Of a DNA stretch of 64,000 bases, positions 1,821-53,472 are shown in pieces. The notes under the pieces are model-generated. The model had not been told where the DNA came from, did not search any database, and was given only the letters and a program-made list of their open reading frames with translations. The position numbers and the translations under genes are program-made. This DNA is from Microthyrium microscopicum (taxonomy: Eukaryota). The DNA lies in NCBI GenBank assembly GCA_010405405.1, contig MU004237.1:596191-660190 (forward strand), read 5' to 3'. Each line of letters starts with the position of its first letter. Position 1 is the first letter of the stretch.

Positions 1821-2065
1821 CTCTGTCCCTGCTCTGCCAGCGGCAACTCACTGCGGCCCGAGAGCCTGCATGGCGTCCATCAATGGTCTTTGTCCTTTTC
1901 ACCCCGCCTATGGTGAAGAGGAAGAAGTTGTGGAAGAGTGTGAGAGCAAAAGGCTTTAAGGTGAACGAATTTGCAAGATGTCTGCTTTGGGATGGGAATG
2001 TCACTGCTGAAGTGACGGGTGGCGTGACGTTTGGAGATGTGGAGTGGGTGAGTGGAGGTAGTCAG

Positions 2066-2317
2066 GTGTAGTGAGTAGCTGGATTTGGGCGGTATGGTAG
2101 TGATGAGGTGTAGTGAGTAGCCGGATCAGGGCGGTATGGTAGCGATGAGATGTAGCGAGTAGCCGGATTTGGGCGGTATGGTGGTGATGAGATGTAGTGG
2201 GTAGCCGAATCAGGGCGGTATGGGGGACATAAGATGTAGTGAGTAGCTAGATCAGGGGGGCATAGGGCGCATGAGATGTAGTGAGTAGCCAGATTGAGCG
2301 GTATAGTGATATATGAG
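2066..2317. repeat. Minisatellite, 42 bp x 6
   Basis: Consensus RTGTAGTGAGTAGCCGGAT(TT/CA)GGGCGGTATGGTAGTGATGAG, units starting at 2066, 2108, 2150, 2192, 2234 and 2276. Confidence 0.9.
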
Positions 2318-3124
2318 ACGTACGAGTTGTTTACAAGTAGTGATAAGAGGTTATGAGAATTTTTATGAGAAGCGATGAGAGTCATGAGTCGCTATGAGAC
2401 CCTCTATGAAGTAGCGATGAGCTTATGAGACGGCTGCAAGTGGTAATAGGATGTCACGAGAAGCTTTATAAAGTAGTAATAAGAAGTCACAAGTGCTCCG
2501 CGAGTAGTAATGAGAAGTTATGACATGCCGTAGTGACAGCGATGAGAAGTCTTGAGACGGTTCGCCAGCAATATTGAGAAGTCGTGAGTTGCATTACCAA
2601 GGAAGGGACTAGTCTTATGACTTGCTAGAGATGGTGTTCAGAAGTCGTGACTAGGTTGCAAGTAGTAGCGAGATGTCCTGAGCGCTATGGATGCCAGCAG
2701 TGATAAGAAGTCAGGAGACGAGTAGCCGTAAGCAGTGACAAGTCTATGAATGTTCACAAGAAGTAGTGAGCAGCGATGAACTACCAAGAATAGCAAGAAG
2801 AAAGTATCAAAAGTGAGCGACCGGATCTGGTTTGTGAGTTGCGATGAGAGGGAAAGAAGTGACCGCAGCCTCTTTGAAGACCAATGAACAGACAAAATTG
2901 AACTAGGCGGTTAGATATATAACAATGGAAGAAGCTCAGTCGCCTAATTCGGTTGAGGAAAGCAAATTCGTGATATTTTGATACTGAGTATTCATACTAG
3001 ATCTAACCTCAAAACCAAAAACGCCAACAATGCATTGCCATAATTTGTGTTCTTTGCGCCAATCCGGGAAGTTACGCTTGCATTTTGTGAAGTAATCAGA
3101 TACGCCTTGGAAGTAGTTGTTCCT

Positions 3125-3980
3125 TTATTCGTCCGATGAGTTGGTCAGACTGAGGTAGGCGGTCCATGCAATACCGATAGTAGAGACAAATGGCTGTGAA
3201 AGGGTGCGTTAGCGTCGGCTTCGTCGCATAGATCATGCCTCATAAGGCTTGAGGAAGAGGGTCGAAACTTACAATCTGAAACTGCAACGGGATAACCCGA
3301 AAATTCAAGATCTGCACCGCCGGCCAAACCAGGTAATTCGCCTTCAGCGCAGGCACATATACATCTCTAAACTTCTTCGTCACCGCCCTCCTTCCACCGC
3401 CCTCCGCGACTGTCATAAACGTAAAGAACAGCCCCAAACCCACTGGCGCAAACAGCAACTGGTCAAATGCCACCCTCTTCATCGCCTGTCCAGTCGCGCC
3501 ACCAGCTTTCAACGGGAATGTTGAGCTCAAAAAGCTAAACCATCTGTGTTGCACGGGCGCCATCAGGAAACCGTATGCCATGAAGCGTGTGAGGCGCTCA
3601 AAGTCGAACGGTGGTGGGAGACCGAGGGAGGAGGGGATGAGAAGGTCTTCGTTGAGAGGGTTTTTGTTGTCGAGGTCGTGAATTTCTATGGCGAAGAAGT
3701 CGTCTCTGTTGGGACCACCTTTACGCACTGCACGTTGGCGGATTGCTGTGAGGGTTTGGGCGACTGTGTCTGCTATGCCACCTAGGACCTGATATAGTTG
3801 TTAGTATCGTAGGAAGCGCGGGATCGTTGAAAGGACTAGACGGTTCGTACGGCGTTGGTTATCATGGTGGTGAGTACTAGACACGTCAGCGAGGTTCATG
3901 CATGGAAGTGGAAGGGACATACCCGGCCTTGAGGCATAGTAGGAGTTGAAGCGCCGCACGAGCATAGATACGATGGCCAT
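3125..3980 (-). CDS. Mpv17/PMP22 family membrane protein (4 exons)
   Basis: Spliced product MAIVSMLVRRFNSYYASRP-VLTTMITNA-VLGGIADTVAQ...KRVAFDQLLFAP...ANYLVWPAVQILNFRVIPLQFQI-PFVSTIGIAWTAYLS carries the typical family motifs. Confidence 0.9.
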
Positions 3981-4716
3981 TTGAAGGAGAAATATAAGAG
4001 CGTGAAGGAGAGGCTGAATCAATTGTTCATTAGTGATCTTTCACAAGGGCATCGAGGGATGGCACAAGGCCTCAGGTTTGAGATGGGAACGCACCAGTTT
4101 TCCGTAAATGTATCTCCGATTGAGAGCCCGCAATACACCGCGCCGTTGTTGTTCAATCATACTGACGTAGAAGAGGATGGATGCACAGATAGCCGCGATA
4201 TCGAGGCGAGGCGGCGGATCTTGGTGGTGACGTCGCTAGTGGAGCAGGCGCCAATCGAGGCTGGTACAAAGCACTGACACGGGGAATTGCAATAACACTG
4301 GCCTCGTCGGATTATCAGGAAGACAAACTATGAGATGCTGAGGTGTAAATAGCGTACGAAATAATAGGGAAAATGGATCAAGTGTGGTAGGAAAGCAAGA
4401 ATTGGCAAGTAGGTCAGATGGTGAGGTGGAGAATGAGAGGATCAAACACAGCCCAGCCGCCAACCTTCCTGATTGGTCTAAATATCCTCAGTCAGCCTTG
4501 TGGTTGGATTCTCCAATAAAATTTGCATTATTAAAGGGTATTTCGAGGGCTATCAAGGATTTATACTCTTGTGCTCCCCAAAAGACGCCATACTATCACA
4601 ACATCTGCCAGCTCTTTTTCGATTCAAGCTTCCGATTGTGCCAGATCTCACAACAGAGATCTTGTTTCACAACTTCCCGAGGCTTGCATCTACAACGTGA
4701 AACACCCGCTAAATGT

Positions 4717-6584
4717 TCAAGACTTTGCACAAACTACGATGTCTGGCAGCTGTCTAATGTCCACCGTCTGTTGTGTGGCCAAATCCACCAGCCGCAATGC
4801 TTCTAGCTGCAAGACACCCGCTTTCATGGGAAGAAACTGTAGCTCTGCCACATAACATGCCGATGGTCCAAGAGCACTATTAGAGTTAGATGCAGGGTGA
4901 CAAAAAGGAGAATGAAGAACTTGCCCAACTCGCACATCAGGTGTCAAGCAGAGAATTTCTGCTGGTTCAATCGTTGACCCCTTTTGTGTCGAATAGAGGA
5001 TGTTGTCATCCAACACCGGATTGACCATACGACCATTCGATCCTATTGAACTTCCAGTCGAGCTAGGCCGTCTCGCAGCAGCGTATATATCCGTAGCTTT
5101 GCGCTTCGGTATTGGGATCAATGCGAATCGCTGAGGTCTCTCTGACCGATTGACAATCAACACCTCCCACGAAAACGCCTCCTCCGCAACGATCTTTTCT
5201 GGGCCAGAGATCGTCAGGCTTACTCCTTCTGCGACAGCTGGCGCTGATGGGAACTCTATCACTTCTCCTGTCATCACAAGAGCATCGTGCTCTATTGATG
5301 AAAGTGGTTCCAAGGGCGTCAAAGGCATTGGTCCTGCGCGAGAAGTTGGGCGCGATGGAGGTAATTCGAGGGCGGTCTTCCATTTTATCTTCACTTTTGG
5401 TATACATATATCTGATACCAGGATTGTGGAAGAGAGTGATATCGTTAGTGATCTTGACGCTCCTGGGTCTGGTATTTGTCTATCCGACAGCGATGGCGGA
5501 AGGATTTTGTATGTCAGCGTGAATTGCTCAGCAGGCCTTCCGCGCTGTGGAAGATTAACACCTATCGCTTCATAAGAACCTGAGGACAGCTTGAGGCTGA
5601 TGCTGTCTAATGATACATCGCAAGCTGCAAAAGGTGTAATCTCAATATCGAAACATGCAAGAATGGCGTCCTTCTCGGCGAGACCTGGGAAGCGCAAAAA
5701 TCGGATCCGCCATAGAAATGCTGGTGCCGCTCGAAATAGCCTTCGTGCTCCGATTTTGATCGGTCTCGATGATTCGTTCAGTGCTGGCGCGCTTGGAAAG
5801 GGCCGCGTTATCCTTGATGCTGAGAGATGTGGATTTATGCCAGCCAGACTGGGATCGCTGGTGAATGATTGGAGAAGGTTAGTGGAGGTGGGCATTATGC
5901 TTGGTAGATATTCGTTATCGTGATTATTTCCAAAGAATGCTTTCGGCGGATTCAATACTGTTATGGGGTTGAAAAAGACTGCTAGTTTCTGCAGCCGTGT
6001 TTTTGGTCTCCCTGTTTTGTGTGAGCGTTGAGTTGGTGGACATGTTATCAAACTCACCAATCGGTATAATAACTTTCCAGAAAAGAAACAGATACTGTTG
6101 CGGTTCTGCATCGTCTTCCGGTTGAATCTCAGTCGCACACATCAGCGGCTCCTCTGATATGTTCACCGCTTCTGCAGACAGCGCTTCTGTCGCCTCCCGT
6201 ACCACAGCCGGGTTCCGGGCATCACCCGGTTTGTCTATAATTTGACCCGTAGCTCGAGTCTCCACTGTAATAGCAAGCCGTGATATGAATTGTTTCAGCT
6301 CATCCTCATCCAAGGCCGGTATTCGAAGCAACACATAAGCAGTGAGCAGTTCATCTGATGCCTACCATGAGCAAGGGTAAACACAATAGCTCTCCAAAAC
6401 GCGACACGAACATACCTAATAGTATAAACTGTCTTGGCTCGATAAATGGGACCATAGACGTGGAATCTTCAGGAATTTCTCCGTCCCATGCTTGGAACAA
6501 GTCTTGCAGGTCGACATCACTGGCGTTGGGCACTACGACCTCCGCAATGGCGGCCTCGGCGATTGCTGTGCTTCTCTCTGCCAT
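4717..6584 (-). CDS. TRS65: TRAPP-II subunit Trs65-like protein (multi-exon)
   Basis: N-terminal FIEPRQFILL-DELLTAYVLLRIP; C-terminal Ig-like region WEVLIVNRS...LCLTPDVRVG..LGPSACYVAELQFLPM..GVLQLEALRLVDL resembles Pezizomycotina Trs65. Confidence 0.75.
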
Positions 6585-43517: not shown

Positions 43518-45830
43518 TTAGACTAAGGTGATATCCTCCAAGTCTTCTCCTGTCCACTTCTGTCCCTCCATCATCGCGTGAATAAAAGCTGGACCAACAT
43601 GGGAGTAAGCCCCAGATGCCATGCGCCGTAGAATAAGTGGCATCGCTATTCCAGACCCGAGCATTACATGATCTCCAACGGCAATACTTCGAAATGCTGT
43701 TCCTAACAGCCCATCTGATGTCACGAAGAGAACCCTTCCAAACAACTTGTCACAGATATCTCTATGGAAAGTTACTGATGTATTTTGAAGCCTTATGAGG
43801 TCTCGCCAGTGTAGCAGCTGCTCATGAGTGTCAACCATCATAGAGTTTGCAGTGACTAGAGACTGAAACCAGTAATTGAACACATCAGACTCCTCTGGTG
43901 GCACACGAGACATGACTCGAGCATAGAGAACCTCATGAACGGCACTGTGAATCGTGTCTGATTCTTTTTGCAGCCTCATTCGAAGTCTAATCGTAGTAAA
44001 AGCATCGAAGAAAGTTTGGGCAACATCTTGTTCTGCGTCAAAAGGACTGGAACAATATAATACTGTGCCACGAAAACATCCACGTATAACTAGTCGCGAA
44101 TTCTCCATCAATCTCCACACCGGCAAAGATTTAGATGTAGTTGCATGGCCATCCACACTGTAGACACAAGCAGGATCCAGCCAAGCTCTTGAGGGTGTGT
44201 GAGCTAAACTCCAATCTGGAGTCCAAGAAGTGGCGTTTAGCAGCCCAGGAAGACCAGCATCTAAAAGTAAGTTTAGTGACCCTCCCCAGTGCAAAAGGGC
44301 CAAGAACAGCTCTTGATAAACCAGTCCGACGGGCTTCTCATAGCTGACTAGTGCAATGCCGACCCCCAAATCTTTCAGTACGCCATACAGCCCATATGAT
44401 TTATCTCTAGGATCTTTGCATTGACGGGTACGGATGGCGCGCTGGATAGAGAGAAACATAGATAGGTCTATAGTCTTAGGTAGCTTTTTGTCTGGTGAGC
44501 CTGGTACCAACTGTAAGGGAGACATGAAATTGAAGAACATGATGCAAAACATTGCGACGAGGGACAAACTGGTGATAGGCCAAAAGATTTTGTCGACATG
44601 AGAATCCGAATTCGTAACAATGTAACTTGTGTCGAAAGTTCCATTCAGGTACAAAACTTCCACCTGACCTGTGTGGTGAAAACGATGAAATATACCTTTG
44701 TTTTCGGAATACAAGACCATGATCGTGATAAGCGAACCCATGAGCAAAAGGAGGATCACAGTGTGCACTATTCGCAGAAGAGCTCTGACCATTTTGTTGG
44801 CAAGAGCCTGGTAATGGAAGAATGAAATCCCCGGACGTCGGTTTGCGGATTCCGGATCCAGTTTTTGTCGCGGAGCTGGAATAAGGCGCCGAACCTGGCG
44901 GTTGTTCCAATGCGACTTTCGCTCGAAGTTCATCCAGAGCTGAATAATTGACATCCAGATATCGTATTGTGTAGGGGCTATTGCCTGTATTGTTTTGCTG
45001 TTGGCTGCATACCATTCCCAGGTTCCAAGCACAAGTCCTCGAATAAAATCGTTCCAGGTAACCATTTGCGTGCCACAGATTACTACTACATTACGCGCCA
45101 GGATGATCTCCTGTAAGGTCCATATACGTTCAGCCCAGTCGCATGATAGGAGCGTTTGAAAGTCTTCCGCCTGGAATCGCTTATCGAAGCGTCGACTTTG
45201 GATTTGATCTAAATAGTCCGTCATAACGTATTTGTTGTTGCTCACAGCAAAGCACTTACCCTGAAGTACGCCAACTGGCGCCAGAAATGTCCAATACAGA
45301 TCTTTGATGGAGAAACAAGCACTCTTCATTCGCCCGCTCATAGTCGGCGCTGATTTGAGTTCCATGTCTTCCAGACACCGAACAAACTTTGGTGTGTAGC
45401 GAATGCAGTCCATTGCTCTGTCGGTCTGAGCCGTCCCCTGTCCAAGCCAGAGGAACACGGTTTCTGCCCATGAATATATCTCTTCCATTAAAGGGATCTG
45501 GATAGCCTTTTCAGCATTGTCCGACTGGTTGATAGAGACAGCATCGACCCATATCGTGAGATGGCCGTAGAGCCTCCTTAGGGAAATGAGAGCTTGGTAA
45601 CAATTGACCGTGACGGCAATGTCATACCCGGAGCAACTAATCGTCGGATCGCTGTCTGTTTGAGGACCCCAGACATATGATAAGGCTGTAAAGCGCGGGC
45701 AGTCCGCCAGTGAAATAACGCGAAGGGTTGCTCGGAGTGCTGCCTGAGGGGAAGAATCAGGGTGAATGTCAAGAACCCGAGTCATTCGGGCTGCATCCAG
45801 AGGAAACTGACGATACAGACTCGAGTTCAT
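43518..45830 (-). CDS. HET-domain (heterokaryon incompatibility, HET-6-like) protein with inserted transmembrane hairpin
   Basis: FTALSYVWG, IWVDAVSINQ, MEEIYSWA, WAERIWTLQEIILA, CKDPRDKSYGLYG, SWTPDWS, C-terminal VGPAFIHAMMEG. Probable in-frame 51-nt intron at 45209-45259. Confidence 0.9.
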   Translation of the reverse strand: MNSSLYRQFPLDAARMTRVLDIHPDSSPQAALRATLRVISLADCPRFTALSYVWGPQTDSDPTISCSGYDIAVTVNCYQALISLRRLYGHLTIWVDAVSINQSDNAEKAIQIPLMEEIYSWAETVFLWLGQGTAQTDRAMDCIRYTPKFVRCLEDMELKSAPTMSGRMKSACFSIKDLYWTFLAPVGVLQGKCFAVSNNKYVMTDYLDQIQSRRFDKRFQAEDFQTLLSCDWAERIWTLQEIILARNVVVICGTQMVTWNDFIRGLVLGTWEWYAANSKTIQAIAPTQYDIWMSIIQLWMNFERKSHWNNRQVRRLIPAPRQKLDPESANRRPGISFFHYQALANKMVRALLRIVHTVILLLLMGSLITIMVLYSENKGIFHRFHHTGQVEVLYLNGTFDTSYIVTNSDSHVDKIFWPITSLSLVAMFCIMFFNFMSPLQLVPGSPDKKLPKTIDLSMFLSIQRAIRTRQCKDPRDKSYGLYGVLKDLGVGIALVSYEKPVGLVYQELFLALLHWGGSLNLLLDAGLPGLLNATSWTPDWSLAHTPSRAWLDPACVYSVDGHATTSKSLPVWRLMENSRLVIRGCFRGTVLYCSSPFDAEQDVAQTFFDAFTTIRLRMRLQKESDTIHSAVHEVLYARVMSRVPPEESDVFNYWFQSLVTANSMMVDTHEQLLHWRDLIRLQNTSVTFHRDICDKLFGRVLFVTSDGLLGTAFRSIAVGDHVMLGSGIAMPLILRRMASGAYSHVGPAFIHAMMEGQKWTGEDLEDITLV

Positions 45831-46962
45831 GATGCTATGATAAAGATGTAGAATGTGAAGCGCTCCGGGGAATTGAGGCCGGTTTTGAGCGTCTCACAAC
45901 GACACGTCGAACGAGCCTTGCTTTCCATGATCGTACTTCTGATCAGGCTGAGCTAACCAGATCCGGTGTAACTGAAGGCGTCGAAAGCAAGAATGAACCA
46001 ATCAACGATGGTCAGCCACTTTGGCATAGCCCTACATCTCAAGGTCAGTTCTAAATTGGTACTCCAAAAAGATCGCCGGTAGAACTATGGGCCAATAATC
46101 TTCAGTGTCTTTGGAAGAAGATCTAGTAAGTACCTAATTTAGAGCCAAAAATAGATTAGGGAAGTCAAGATGGTGTATCTCTGGCAAGTCAATATGTAAT
46201 ATCGGTATCCTTGCTGCCGATCAATCAACACCCTTGAAGCTTTACAGTGTCATTGGGGTTGAGCGATCCCCCCCCCCAAAATTCTTGCTGAGAAAGTTCA
46301 GCCGTTGATTGGCTTATAAGCAAGCCACCAAGGCTCTATCAGGCTTAGTGAGTAGAAGTTTCGTTGTGGTCGAATCGCTTCTATCCAAGCTTTCATTTTG
46401 CACCAATTACATCGTAAGTTGGTGTTCTATATTTTTAGCGGGGGGGATCGCTCAACCCCAATGGCACTGTATAAACTACTCCAGGGTAGCTTGTCAAGCT
46501 TGTATAAATGTAGCTCACCGCCCACAATCGTCTCCAAAACCTTCCTCTCAACAAAAATATTCTTCATCCACGAGAGCCAAAAAAACGTACAGCAGTAGGG
46601 ATTCTCACGTGGTCACCCACCGCAATACTAATCTACCGGTTCGAAGCTTAAATAGGGCGGAGCGGACGGGACGCCTTGTATTCTTCGACCTATGGCCGTA
46701 CGTGAAGGACAATTGTAATCGATCATTACATATAATTGTTGACTTCGATCGATCATCAACGGCGAAAATCGCGTTTATTCAAAAGCAAGCACTTCTTTTA
46801 CAGTATCATCGCAGCTTGAATCTCAGAAGTAAACCCTCATGACCAAACTATTATCATTTCTATCTCGCCTGCATACCAATAAATTATCTTTATGCTCCAA
46901 GTCTCATGTACAGATCCACTTTCGTGTCGTTGTGCTATGTCCTTCTTCTCCTTGCTCCTTGA

Positions 46963-48686: not shown

Positions 48687-49817
48687 TCACTTTCCCTCAA
48701 AGGCATAACTCAACGCCCACATAACCATCGTATCACTCGCCGTCCCCATATGCCCACCCCCATCCGTACTCTCCCTCAAATCATGCTTCGTCAAATCATA
48801 ACTCCCCCTCAACGCAAAACTATCCCCCTTCTTCAACCCAATCGGCTCCGGACAAATACTCATCTCCGTAATAACTCCCGCCCCATTATACGTCGGCCTA
48901 CTCGTACAGACATCTTTCCCATTCAGCGTCATAACCACCTCAGTGCCGCCCGCATGGATATGTCCTCTTGCCCAAACGATCGTCGCGTCTTCGGTGACGG
49001 TCATTGTTTTGCTGGTGGTGGTTGCGGCGCCAGATTTGGAGACTTTGGGCGTTCCTTGGACGGATTTCATTACGTGGCCGGCGTCTTTGCCGATTAGGCC
49101 GTCGAGGTATTCTAGTTCGAGGTCGAGGTAGACGCGGCGGGAGGTTTTGTTGTAGTTGACGAGATCGTATTGGATGCCGAGGGAGGGGGTGCGGAAGTGG
49201 AAACCGGAGTTGTATTTGCCGTCGGGGGTGGTGAAGATTGTTTCGGTGTCGCCGCTGTCTTCGCCGCGGTCGGTGAAGCTGATGATTTCAATCAATTGCC
49301 ACTCGAACAATGTCATTCCAAAGAACTTACGCTTGTGTGGCAGAACCGGTTGCGCCGTCAGAGCTAATGGGCACTCTTGCTGCTTTGGAATTGTCGTATG
49401 CTAGCAGGTGGTGCACGTAGAAACCGTTGGATGGTTTGGCGGGTGAGCCGTCTTCGTTGTGGAATGATATACGGGTTAGGAGAACGGTGCAGTTGGAGCA
49501 GAGACCAGTTTTGGATGTGAATGTTGTTGAACCACCTAGACCTTTGCGATCCATGGAGAAACCTCCACCAGGCTTCTTCTCCTGATCAATGTATTAGCAC
49601 AATGTGATTATGGCTTGAAACATTCGCGTTATGGACTCACATCCACACCAGGCATGAGCAACGGCCCATACGATAACATGACGCGCTTAGCATTATCTCG
49701 AAGTTTTGGCTTAAGCTCCTTCTTTGAAGCCAAAGGCAATGAACTTCCAGCACCACCAAACTGAGGCCTGCATTCAGCTATGGCGCTCAGTAACAATAAA
49801 GCAGCTTGGAGCTTCAT
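48687..49817 (-). CDS. Secreted protein with PHM/DBH-like copper-ligand pattern (SURNod19-like), 3 exons
   Basis: Signal peptide MKLQAALLLLSAIAEC; CSNC; YVHH; GHIHAGG; C-terminal GTASDTMVM. Confidence 0.75.
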
Positions 49818-50302
49818 TTTGATAGCTGTCAATATTTACCGTGGAAAATGAGGGACATTGAAGTCAACGAGGCTATATTAATATATTTTGTACTGAATGG
49901 CGTCTAGACTTTACATAGATTATAGGTAGAAATGAAAGGGATAAATAATATAACAGAGATTAATAGACGGAAGATATGGTACAAGAGAGCCCTCGTCTTG
50001 GTGGTAGGGAAGCATGTCCATGATTGATACACAGTCCATGATATGTTTGATAACACCGAGATTTCGGAAATTAGATCGCTATACATATGTACATCAGCTT
50101 TCTTTGATAAGGCTTGAGAAGTGGAGTGCAATCGCAGTTTGTTGTCATTGATCGCTGATGGGGCAATACATGAAGAGAGTCATTCTAGAGCCTTTCTGGT
50201 CTTCTTTCGATGAGCTTGGACTCCTCCTGAAGGTTCAGTCTTACATAAGGATTCGGTGTGGTAGTTCGTTTAGAGTATCGAGAAATCTAGATGGACTTGA
50301 TG

Positions 50303-51496
50303 TATCCCCTCGGTGCATGTGGTCATGTTGGAATTTGATAGAAACTATAAGGACACGTTTTAGCTAGTTTCACCCCCTGTTTTTAAGCCCCTATTTTTGC
50401 CCCTTTTAGGCACTAATAGTACCTATATTTAGCTATATAAACCTATAGAAACACTTTCTTAGATAGAAATCTAGAGGTCCTTCAAAATAGTGTAATTTCC
50501 TTAAAATTTATAGAATCTAGTTTCTATTAGTTATAAGCCTAGTTATCTCTATACTAGACCTTCTTACTCTCTTATCTTCTTTTAAGTTAAGCCTTTATTA
50601 ACTCTTAGTTACGCTAAGCTATATATTAAACCTTACTTACTAAAGCTAAAGTATAACGAAGCTTCCTAATAAGAATAATTATTAACGTTTACGATTCTAA
50701 TATTAAACTAAACGATTTTTTTTAAAAGGAACGTTAATCTCGCTATAGGCTAAATAATAGCTATAGTAAATACTATAACTTCTTACTAAGAGAACGTCTA
50801 ACTTCCTTTAATAAGAAGGAACGTCTTTATAATTAGCTTTACTTCTAGGGAGGAACGTCTTTAAGTTTAATAAACTTCTTTTTAAGTTTTAATAAAAGAG
50901 AACGCTAAAATAATAATAGGGTTTACCCTTAGGAAGAACGTTTTTAATAATAGGATTTACCCTTAGGGGGAACGCCTTTAATAATAGGCTTTAAGGAACG
51001 CTTTTAGATAATAATAGACTTTTCTAGAGAACGCCTTTATAGCTTTATAATTAGGAATTTAATAGAATAGTATAATAAGCTATAGAGGAATAATAGAAAC
51101 TATAAGGATACATTTTAGCTAGTTTTACCCCTTGTTTTTAAGCCCCTATTTTTGCTCCTTTTAGGTACTAATAGTACCTATATTTAGCTATATAAACCTA
51201 TAGAAACATCCTCTTAGATAGAAATCTAGAAGTCCTTTAAAATAGTGTAATTCCCTTAAAATCTATAAAATCTAGTTTCTATTAGAATTTGATCCTCGTT
51301 GCCTTGTGGCCTGTAATGTGCCTAATATAGCCTAATATAGCCTAAATAGCCTTAAAAGTTATAGGAAACTCTACAAGGCGCGCGGCTAATGTAGCTATCC
51401 CGTGACTTTTAAGGCTGTTTAGGCTATATTAGGCTATATTAGGCACATTACAGGCCACAAGGCAACGGGGATCGAATTCCAACCACCGAGGGGATA
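50303..51496. mobile_element. Palindromic MITE/foldback-like element, interrupted by the LTR insertion
   Basis: TATCCCCTCGGTG (50303-50315) is the inverted repeat of CACCGAGGGGATA (51484-51496). Arms 51285-51365 and about 51400-51479 are near-perfect reverse complements. Confidence 0.8.
50336..51284 (+). mobile_element. Non-autonomous mini LTR retroelement (TRIM-like), RIP-degraded
   Basis: 194-bp direct repeats at 50336-50529 and 51091-51284; termini TGATAGAAAC..GTTTCTATTA; GAATT duplicated at 50331-50335 and 51285-51289; AT-rich 561-bp interior. Confidence 0.9.
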
Positions 51497-52158
51497 TGTA
51501 TGGAGATGGATGGAATAGGTGTGGTGAGTGCAAAGATAAAAGCAAAGATCAGAAGAGCTCAGAGGCTTGGCAGGCACGCGAGATAAGATAGGAACTCACG
51601 ATCTCCGATCTCGGAAAGCATCCGGCCCCGCCATGCACTGCAGCAAGGATACCCCTGCTTGGGCCTGGATAGGCTTGGAGTTGGGCGAAGAAACAACTTC
51701 TGGAGTCTGGACTGTCAGACTGTGGGACCACTCGACTGTCACGACCAAACTTCTTTTTCGCCCTCTCGTATTGCTCTTATATGCGCACGCGATCAACTCC
51801 TCTTTCCATCTTCCCTCTATTCTCACTCCATATTGCCTCCTATACACCTTCACCTGCAACGCAAGATACATCCATCAGCATATCCCATCATTCCTGAGCT
51901 TGGTACGTCATCCCCTTTTCCCTGAAATCCATTTCATCGCCCACAATATTGGCCTAGAGAGGCCTACCCGTAGCAACCATTCGACACGATAATGGGCGCG
52001 CTCCATCAACTGCCGTGTTCCTTATCTCACTGGATGACGAGCAGATGGCTTGGATCCCACTCATTTGACGGGAGTCGACGGGTTTTCATTGCTGTATGCC
52101 AATGTTATGTTAACCTTGCTTCAGATTCCAATACTCGCCCTGACACACCTATATCATT

Positions 52159-53472
52159 ATGGGTCCTGCCCCCAAGTACATCGATCTTGCATACGACCAT
52201 GCAAATTCCGACGAATCTGCATTGAAGCTCGTGGCTACATTATTCCCAGACTGGGCTTCACAAAAGGATACTGTTCAGTTTATCCGTTTCAAAGATGGCA
52301 TCACCAATACTCTTTTGAAGGTCATCAATAAACGCCCGGGTTATACAGAAGAACAGATTGACCGAGATGCTGTTCTTCTTCGGGCCTATGGAAATGGCAC
52401 ACAGGTCCTCATTGACCGAGATCGTATGAATCTTTCAATTTGTACAAGATCGTGGTGCTAACCCGTAATAGGTGAATGCGCATCCCACTCCTTACTCGCA
52501 AGTCATAACCTGGCACCTCCACTACTCGCCAGATTCAAAAACGGTCTGCTTTACAGGTTTATCTCTGGCAAGGTATGCTCTCCTGCAGATCTAAGGAGGA
52601 GCGATGTATGGCGAGCTGTAGCAAGAAGACTTGCGGAATGGCACGCGACACTACCAATCTCAGCAATCCTCGACAAACCCGGCGAGAAAAATTCCAGCAA
52701 AGGTCCCTTCGAAACTATGAGCAAGATTTCAAGTCTCCCATCTCCGAACATATGGACTGTCATGTATAGATGGTCCTGCGCCTTGCCAGATCAGACCGAT
52801 TCACAAAGCAATCGCAAAGCCATGATTCAAAAAGAACTTGAATGGATGGCTGAGAAACTAGGCGATGTTCCCGGAATCCACTCTCAGCAGTTGATATTTG
52901 CGCACTGTGATCTGTTACATGGAAATGTAATTGTCCAACCATCTGCTGCGCATTTACACCATCCCTCGGAACACTCTGAGCCTAGTTCATCGGCCAGTTC
53001 TCCATTGACCGCGCCCAGCATGGCTTCGGACAGAGATGTAGCTCCTGTTAAAGTGCATTTCATTGACTATGAATATGCCACACCGTCGCCAGTCGCTTTC
53101 GACATTGCTAACCACTTTGCCGAATGGGGTGGCTTTGACTGCGACTTCACTGTTCTCCCCACCAGAGCTCAAAGAAGGAACTTCTTGAGCACATATCTGC
53201 AGGCGTACAACTCTTTCAAGGGCAGGGAATTTGAGTCAAAAGAACTCGAACAACTCATGGCCGAAGTTGATCTTTTCCGCGGCGTGCCTGGATTCTACTG
53301 GGGAATCTGGGCTATCATTCAAGCTGAGATCAGCTCAATCGATTTCGATTATGCCAACTACGCCGAAGTGCGTATGAGCGAGTACTGGGCGTGGAAGAAA
53401 TCTTTGACCAACGAAAATGGACAAGGAGACCAAGTACCAGTTCGCGAACGGCGGTGGGCACAAGACGAATAG
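52159..53472 (+). CDS. Ethanolamine/choline kinase (intron about 52424-52471)
   Basis: DGITNTLLK, LLRAYGNGT..LIDR, Brenner-type FAHCDLLHGNVI, FIDYEYA, AFDIANHFAEWGGFDCD, GFYWGIWA. Confidence 0.9.

Follow-up and report, generated by a model that had tools for sequence, protein, structure and literature searches.

The window, the whole stretch of 64,000 nucleotides analysed here, belongs to the 37.1 Mb assembly (58 contigs) of Microthyrium microscopicum. It contains a short LTR retroelement nested in a MITE, and the nested elements lie between divergent genes, with fungal-type genes (HET and choline kinase domains) nearby. A choline/ethanolamine kinase gene (52144-53472, plus strand; PF01633, E 3e-51; first ATG at 52159) has the nested elements about 0.7-0.9 kb upstream of it. 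On the minus strand, an ORF at 48687-49400 gave a weak PF07712 hit below cut-off, and a 791-codon ORF at 43518-45893 encodes a HET domain (PF06985, E 3e-26) and has a hydrophobic middle part. A tandem array of about six 42-bp units occupies 2067-2322.

The retroelement measures 949 bp, with two 194-bp LTRs and a 561-bp interior (50530-51090). Its features are listed in Table 1. An earlier reading made from the letters only (hereafter the sequence-only reading) had given its coordinates, the LTR sizes, the GAATT flanks and the positions of the primer site and of AGAGGAA, and all were found as described. GTTATAAGCC stands immediately 3' of the left LTR, AGAGGAA has the position of the purine tracts in Copia elements of the same genome, and a TATA-like TATATAA lies at 50434-50440 within the 5' LTR. 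The two LTRs are 92.3% identical, and their 15 differences are all transitions, as had been noted for those that could be aligned.

Table 1. Positions in the window of the retroelement and of the MITE that it interrupts
Feature	Position	Strand	Basis or remark
Outer piece of left MITE arm; starts CCCCTCGG	50306..50335	+	aligns to reverse complement of 51464-51493
Left target-site duplication GAATT	50331..50335	+	single GAATT in opposite MITE arm
5' LTR, 194 bp, RIP-mutated	50336..50529	+	repeat comparison with 3' LTR
Primer-binding site, 13 bases	50530..50542	+	complementary to tRNA-Met(CAT) positions 26-38, 10/13
Non-coding interior	50543..51083	+	no CpA or TpG left; nine degenerate GAACG units
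Short polypurine tract AGAGGAA	51084..51090	+	adjoins 3' LTR
3' LTR, 194 bp, RIP-mutated	51091..51284	+	repeat comparison with 5' LTR
Right target-site duplication GAATT	51285..51289	+	copy of left GAATT
Remainder of host MITE; ends CCGAGGGG	51290..51493	.	termini shared with piggyBac-like transposon, contig C14

The interior had been described as non-coding with reiterated GAACG, and this description holds. GAACG occurs nine times (at 50729, 50792, 50819, 50853, 50900, 50936, 50970, 50996 and 51029), whereas 1000 dinucleotide shuffles gave 0.29 on average and never more than 3; 7 of the 9 units lie in one phase, and a 34-bp tandem unit is found among them at 50911-50993. None of the six frames, read through with X, contained a Pfam family, a result that RIP could produce by hiding a coding relic, and no coding remnant was detected by tblastn with the intact Copia element described below. 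Two Rfam matches stayed below the gathering score, the better one being due to the MITE hairpin, and were discarded. Contigs from two runs of one sample, possibly the source of the assembly and so not independent of it, together span the element and agree with the window throughout. In these runs the interior lies on one contig at a depth of 1166, compared to 1004 and 1052 for the flanks, values which do not translate into a copy number. Four of five sequencing runs represent that sample; the fifth (share 0.14) yielded short pieces of low depth, none of which reaches over the element.

The insertion lies within the left arm of a foldback MITE; the inverted arms of this MITE (51282-51366 and 51398-51482) show 92% complementarity over 85 bp. 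Without the insertion, the two arms can be aligned starting at the CCCC end, and at the position equivalent to the insertion the right arm has GAATT once. The window therefore contains its own equivalent of an empty site, which the sequence-only reading had proposed to look for in related strains, and it follows that GAATT is a true duplication and that the MITE was present first. This fixes the order of events: MITE first, retroelement second. The insertion and its GAATT duplication had thus been recognised correctly, while the interrupted MITE arm had been missed. We conclude that the element is a genuine LTR retroelement, integrated with a 5-bp duplication.

Eleven extra bases, possibly the footprint of another insertion, are present in the left arm only (50316-50326). 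Two similar MITEs were found on contig C5, and the MITE termini recur as perfect inverted repeats of 74 bp that enclose a 7.8-kb element on contig C14 (locus L012, 1015-8774). The latter encodes a PF13843 transposase (E 2.6e-37), a family assigned to piggyBac (PMC5751038; here and below, citations refer to the accessible parts of the papers). In all four copies examined of the MITE family and the piggyBac-like element the flanks read NTAT/CCCC...GGGG/ATAN, with neither TTAA nor a 4-bp duplication. They would fit a 2-bp TA or AT duplication, which is unusual for piggyBac; in the literature searched, mostly outside subscription journals, there was no direct match for a non-TTAA piggyBac in fungi. 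The C14 element also contains an AT-rich, RIP-like block, partly N (about 2000-6000 of the locus), downstream of the open 480-codon transposase frame.

A genome search with the whole element returned three places, namely the element itself, a 195-bp solo LTR on contig C14 and a 5'-truncated LTR on contig C9, and the solo LTR used as query gave the same set. The interior was found once by DNA search, and a degenerate-pattern search for it also gave one place, its own two units; all these counts are lower bounds, as some stretches of the genome read N. The solo LTR has TG..CA ends, its own 5-bp duplication (ACATG) and retained CpA sites. Three separate insertions of this LTR family are therefore present. 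None of 23 other LTR-element or LTR-bearing loci shared the interior, and only the C9 partial-LTR locus matched the LTR. The genome search that the sequence-only reading had suggested thus revealed further LTRs on C14 and C9 and a single interior. Its "TRIM-like family" stands for the existence of other LTR insertions, but one full copy, one solo and one partial LTR do not demonstrate a family. The truncated LTR on C9 adjoins an apparently different TG..CA solo LTR of about 200 bp (L003, 1501-1850). Two matches from elsewhere were rejected: an 18-base LTR word in a metagenome fell on a bacterial-type contig of 57% GC with no further similarity and was attributed to chance, and a viral 40-kb contig matching the LTR-primer junction pattern had, by eye, no LTR around it.

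Comparison with the solo LTR gave the direction of the changes. At all 15 positions where the window LTRs differ, the solo LTR has C or G, so that every difference is a C>T or G>A change, as produced by RIP. In the two LTRs, 16 and 20 of the 24 CpA sites were mutated, compared to 6 and 9 of the 57 other C/G sites. The interior has no CpA or TpG where 56.8 are expected, and the flanks are normal (observed/expected 1.15 and 1.13). The proposal that RIP had acted here was borne out. Both ends are mutated in both LTRs, except for the first G of the left one, and the window copy has TA at its end. In the unmutated solo LTR, the start TGACAGAACA and the end GTTTCCATCA form an imperfect inverted pair, which shows that the near-perfect 10-bp inverted terminus of the window LTRs arose by RIP convergence. 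This terminus, pointed out by the sequence-only reading, does exist, but is not an original feature. Dating from LTR divergence (K2P 0.084) was ruled out, the differences being due to RIP.

One tRNA-Met(CAT) gene in the genome matched the anticodon-arm pattern. ARAGORN calls it tRNA-Met(CAT) only; from its sequence type, we take it to be the initiator. The three mismatches between this tRNA and the 13 bases following the left LTR (10/13) are RIP-type transitions, in agreement with the Copia-type primer site announced earlier. An intact Copia element (contigs C25 and C26) has the same primer site, unmutated, and the predicted primer duplex is -13.2 kcal/mol for the mini element compared to -29.8 kcal/mol for the intact one, whose LTR ends TA, not CA. 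This intact element, present on two small contigs (L036, L037), has one 1869-aa ORF with a long low-complexity N-terminal extension.

An autonomous partner was sought by several routes. The RVT_2 search of the genome gave 16 matches, and BLASTN comparison of the 15 loci retrieved at these matches revealed no sharing of the LTR or the interior. The primer-site pattern occurred at 22 places (control 5), six of which have the same LTR-primer junction as the mini element; these six are members of a family of 7-kb elements whose LTRs measure 295 bp (37 LTR matches, of which 30 were fetched, L089-L118). Transition-tolerant alignment against the 22 primer-pattern loci and against a set of 24 loci, one of them the piggyBac locus, returned only the known LTR copies. 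One locus (L079) that had scored 53, compared to 39 for three shuffles, did not hold against 500 shuffles.

All 17 of the 5' LTRs of the 7-kb family begin TGACAGAA, like the solo LTR, and 13 of its 3' or solo LTRs end TTCCGTCA (10), TTCCGTTA (2) or TTCCATCA (1), the last being also the end of the mini-element solo. The primer junction, with one purine fewer than in the other Copia families of this genome, is the same in 17 of 17. The LTR bodies do not align above the level of shuffled sequences, of which 83 and 320 out of 500 attain the same score. As for coding capacity, one Pol_BBD hit below the curated cut-off (E 0.00096) was obtained in 1 of 12 frames, and protease, integrase and RT motifs, in that order, could be read by eye. 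Neither the RVT_2 search nor tblastn with the intact Copia had detected the family, and none of the 100 RVT_1 matches listed falls inside the six 7-kb loci fetched. From this hit and these motifs the family is probably Copia, and it is the best candidate for the lineage of the partner, although no autonomous element among the loci compared shares the LTR body or the interior, so that the partner sharing its LTR, which the sequence-only reading had proposed to look for, was not found. Its members show a clear RIP gradient, with outer LTR ends spared over tens of bases and inner ends saturated, and one solo LTR of the family (L116) is unmutated despite 36 other LTR matches.

Taken together, these features make it likely that the element is a non-autonomous, TRIM-sized LTR retroelement of Ty1/copia dependence, mobilised in trans. 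An autonomous Copia, perhaps of the 7-kb family lineage, would have supplied the proteins for packaging, reverse transcription and integration of the element's RNA; the anticodon arm of the initiator tRNA would have primed the minus strand, and the short purine tract the plus strand. The pre-existing piggyBac-related MITE received the insertion in its left arm, where GAATT was duplicated, and the copy, RIP-mutated, is probably inactive now. With a single interior copy in the assembly, transposition in the short form is an inference.

RIP is commonly regarded as bringing retrotransposition to a definitive end. In reverse transcription, both new LTRs derive from the inner halves of the donor LTRs, so that a donor already RIPed when copied predicts mutated outer ends and shared mutated sites. 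As a control, elements of the 7-kb family were compared with their own unmutated solo LTR, using 11 LTR pairs matched by their duplications (one with a RIP-type mismatch), and leaving out one mismatched pair and five unpaired 5' LTRs; all controls have widely spaced LTRs. In the mini element, mutation has affected 8 of the 10 sites lying no more than 30 bp from the outer ends, compared to 20 of 88 in the 11 sisters (p 0.0006, for one element, with sites that are not independent and a test chosen after seeing the data). Relative to the solo LTR, the two LTRs have 16 mutated CpA sites in common and the left has none of its own, compared to 4 for the right, with 4 further CpA sites intact in both (p 0.0066; p 0.015 for the core alone). 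None of the 11 sister pairs has an excess of shared mutated sites (p 0.46-1.0), nor do three further elements for which the intact C25 LTR served as reference (p 0.30-0.82), and the sister pairs are all less alike, with 81-87.5% identity. Finally, the private changes of the mini-element LTRs lie inward, and the shared ones reach both outer ends. We regard this pattern as a suggestive sign of transposition after RIP. Assuming a mobilised short unit, a donor already RIPed when copied is slightly, and tentatively, favoured: both LTRs would have been rebuilt from heavily mutated inner halves, despite the mismatched primer site and the TA end.

A strong competitor as to timing, compatible with mobilisation in trans, is RIP in place. 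An unmutated insert would have been RIPed via its own LTRs, 561 bp apart, possibly with an extension by the neighbouring MITE arms, and the shared mutations would be parallel hits at the same mutable sites. Such parallel hits do occur: same-side LTRs of independent sister insertions share mutated sites (p down to 0.0002), which indicates strong position and context effects, and CAC sites are resistant (left LTR, 2 of 7). Moreover, RIP in place does not call for a donor re-mobilised with a TA end and a weak primer site, although the LTR of the intact Copia also ends TA. Where direct repeats lie close together in Neurospora, mutation by the DIM-2 pathway falls mainly on the single-copy linker between them (10.1101/344036), which would explain a saturated single-copy interior without siblings. 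For this reason, and because 4 of 11 windows of one sister element also have 0 CpA/TpG, saturation of the interior was not retained as proof of former siblings. The same pathway, however, affects linker and flanks similarly (10.1101/2021.04.05.438447), and here the left flank is untouched, with 9 CpA/TpG kept in 50300-50350; on the other side, the MITE arm beside the right LTR does carry C>T changes, which may extend the mutated zone there. The complete lack of left-only CpA mutations, with no excess of sharing in any sister pair, and the course of shared changes out to both outer ends speak against independent hits in place, and the non-CpA load (6 and 9 of 57, mostly below the 15-32 of 100 in the sisters) does not indicate extra rounds of RIP. 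RIP in place is on balance only slightly less likely than a donor already RIPed, and routes other than these two are less likely still. For the complete scenario of a second-generation copy, in which a RIPed donor was still transcribed, copied and integrated in trans, we consider the overall chances somewhat low.

The main rival to mobilisation in the short form would be a one-off internal deletion: a full-length Copia inserted here and lost nearly all of its interior, with no transposition in the short form. LTRs, primer site, purine tract and duplication would all survive such a deletion, the solo and partial LTRs could stem from full-length parents, and the interior is indeed single. The common phase of 7 of the 9 GAACG units is a weak hint of coding origin, RIP being able to erase an ORF. 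No coding remnant was found, however, and no parent among the 23 loci compared. In addition, where RIP in place has struck full-length elements of this genome, the outer ends are spared and the LTRs more divergent in 11 of 11 cases, unlike in the mini element, whose mutated outer ends speak against RIP in place of a full-length element followed by deletion; the argument bears on RIP before deletion, not on deletion before RIP. We judge the deletion unlikely. Homogenisation of the LTRs by gene conversion after partial RIP would account for two LTRs that are close together and more alike than sister pairs, but a single event would copy one protected outer end, and at least two opposite conversions would be needed, which makes it very improbable. 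An assembly artefact, or a segmental duplication unrelated to retrotransposition, has the single copy in its favour and nothing more, and is in effect refuted by the solo LTR, which has a duplication of its own, and by the empty-site MITE arm, along with the primer site, the purine tract and the contigs tiling across the element, even if these come from what may be the source sample.

As a TRIM, the element carries little weight, such elements having been published in fungi. Should the donor have been RIPed, it would mean that RIP stops coding elements and not gene-less ones, and a two-stage history would imply that what RIP blocks is the proteins, more than the cis signals. A general, single-genome test for transposition after RIP would then be available in the mutation symmetry between two LTRs, and the combination of outer ends and shared sites could be run on any fungal assembly. 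The literature searched, which mostly excluded subscription papers, contained no direct match for transposition after RIP.

TRIMs are defined as shorter than 1000 bp with two LTRs (PMC10886601). At 949 bp with 194-bp LTRs, the mini element falls within this size, encodes no mobilisation protein, and has a primer site and a polypurine tract at the ends of its interior and a target-site duplication. The anticodon-arm primer on tRNA-iMet, the TG..CA ends (in the solo LTR) and the 5-bp duplication correspond to Ty1/copia dependence. TRIMs have been reported in Dothideomycetes (PMC8549362, PMC4646964), and these, like other TRIMs, share with the mini element a length below 1 kb, two LTRs, a non-coding interior, the primer site, the purine tract and the 5-bp duplication. 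It differs in being known from one full copy, heavily RIPed, whereas RLX_TRIM_Sinope, an expanding TRIM, is among the families of highest GC (PMC8549362).

Among Copia elements, Ty5 of Saccharomyces and copia of Drosophila also prime on the anticodon arm of tRNA-iMet (PMC10886601), with a complementary site directly after the 5' LTR; the mini element differs from them by its lack of coding capacity. Of the fungal Copia clades GalEa and FunCo1 (PMC5445492), the first has a palindromic hairpin site, CTGATCAGT/CTAATTAGT, and the sequence after the mini-element LTR differs from it and matches the tRNA; the tRNA-Lys primer site of the second, ATTAAGAGTCT, does not follow the mini-element LTR. The 7-kb family resembles the mini element by LTR start (8/8), LTR end (7-8/8), 5-bp duplications and primer junction, the primer match starting in both one base (one G) later than in three other Copia families here. 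It differs in an LTR body and interior that cannot be aligned, in the RIPed state of all full copies examined, and in their protected outer ends.

A system of similar mode of action is Helenus, fungal TRIMs described in rusts and agarics, with 5-bp duplications, priming on tRNA-iMet at its anticodon loop and Copia partners with unlike LTRs (PMC10886601). The mini element would work in the same way, but the Helenus LTR is tRNA-derived with Pol III boxes A and B, while the solo LTR, which has a TATA-like box, gave no match to box A or B on either strand and no tRNA call. In view of this, the mini element is not a Helenus. The sequence-only reading had called it possibly undescribed; this may be true of the particular sequence, but not of the design, since Copia-mobilised fungal TRIMs are described in the same paper (PMC10886601). 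The Copia-dependent fungal TRIM is thus an already known design, of which the mini element is a single, RIP-damaged example.
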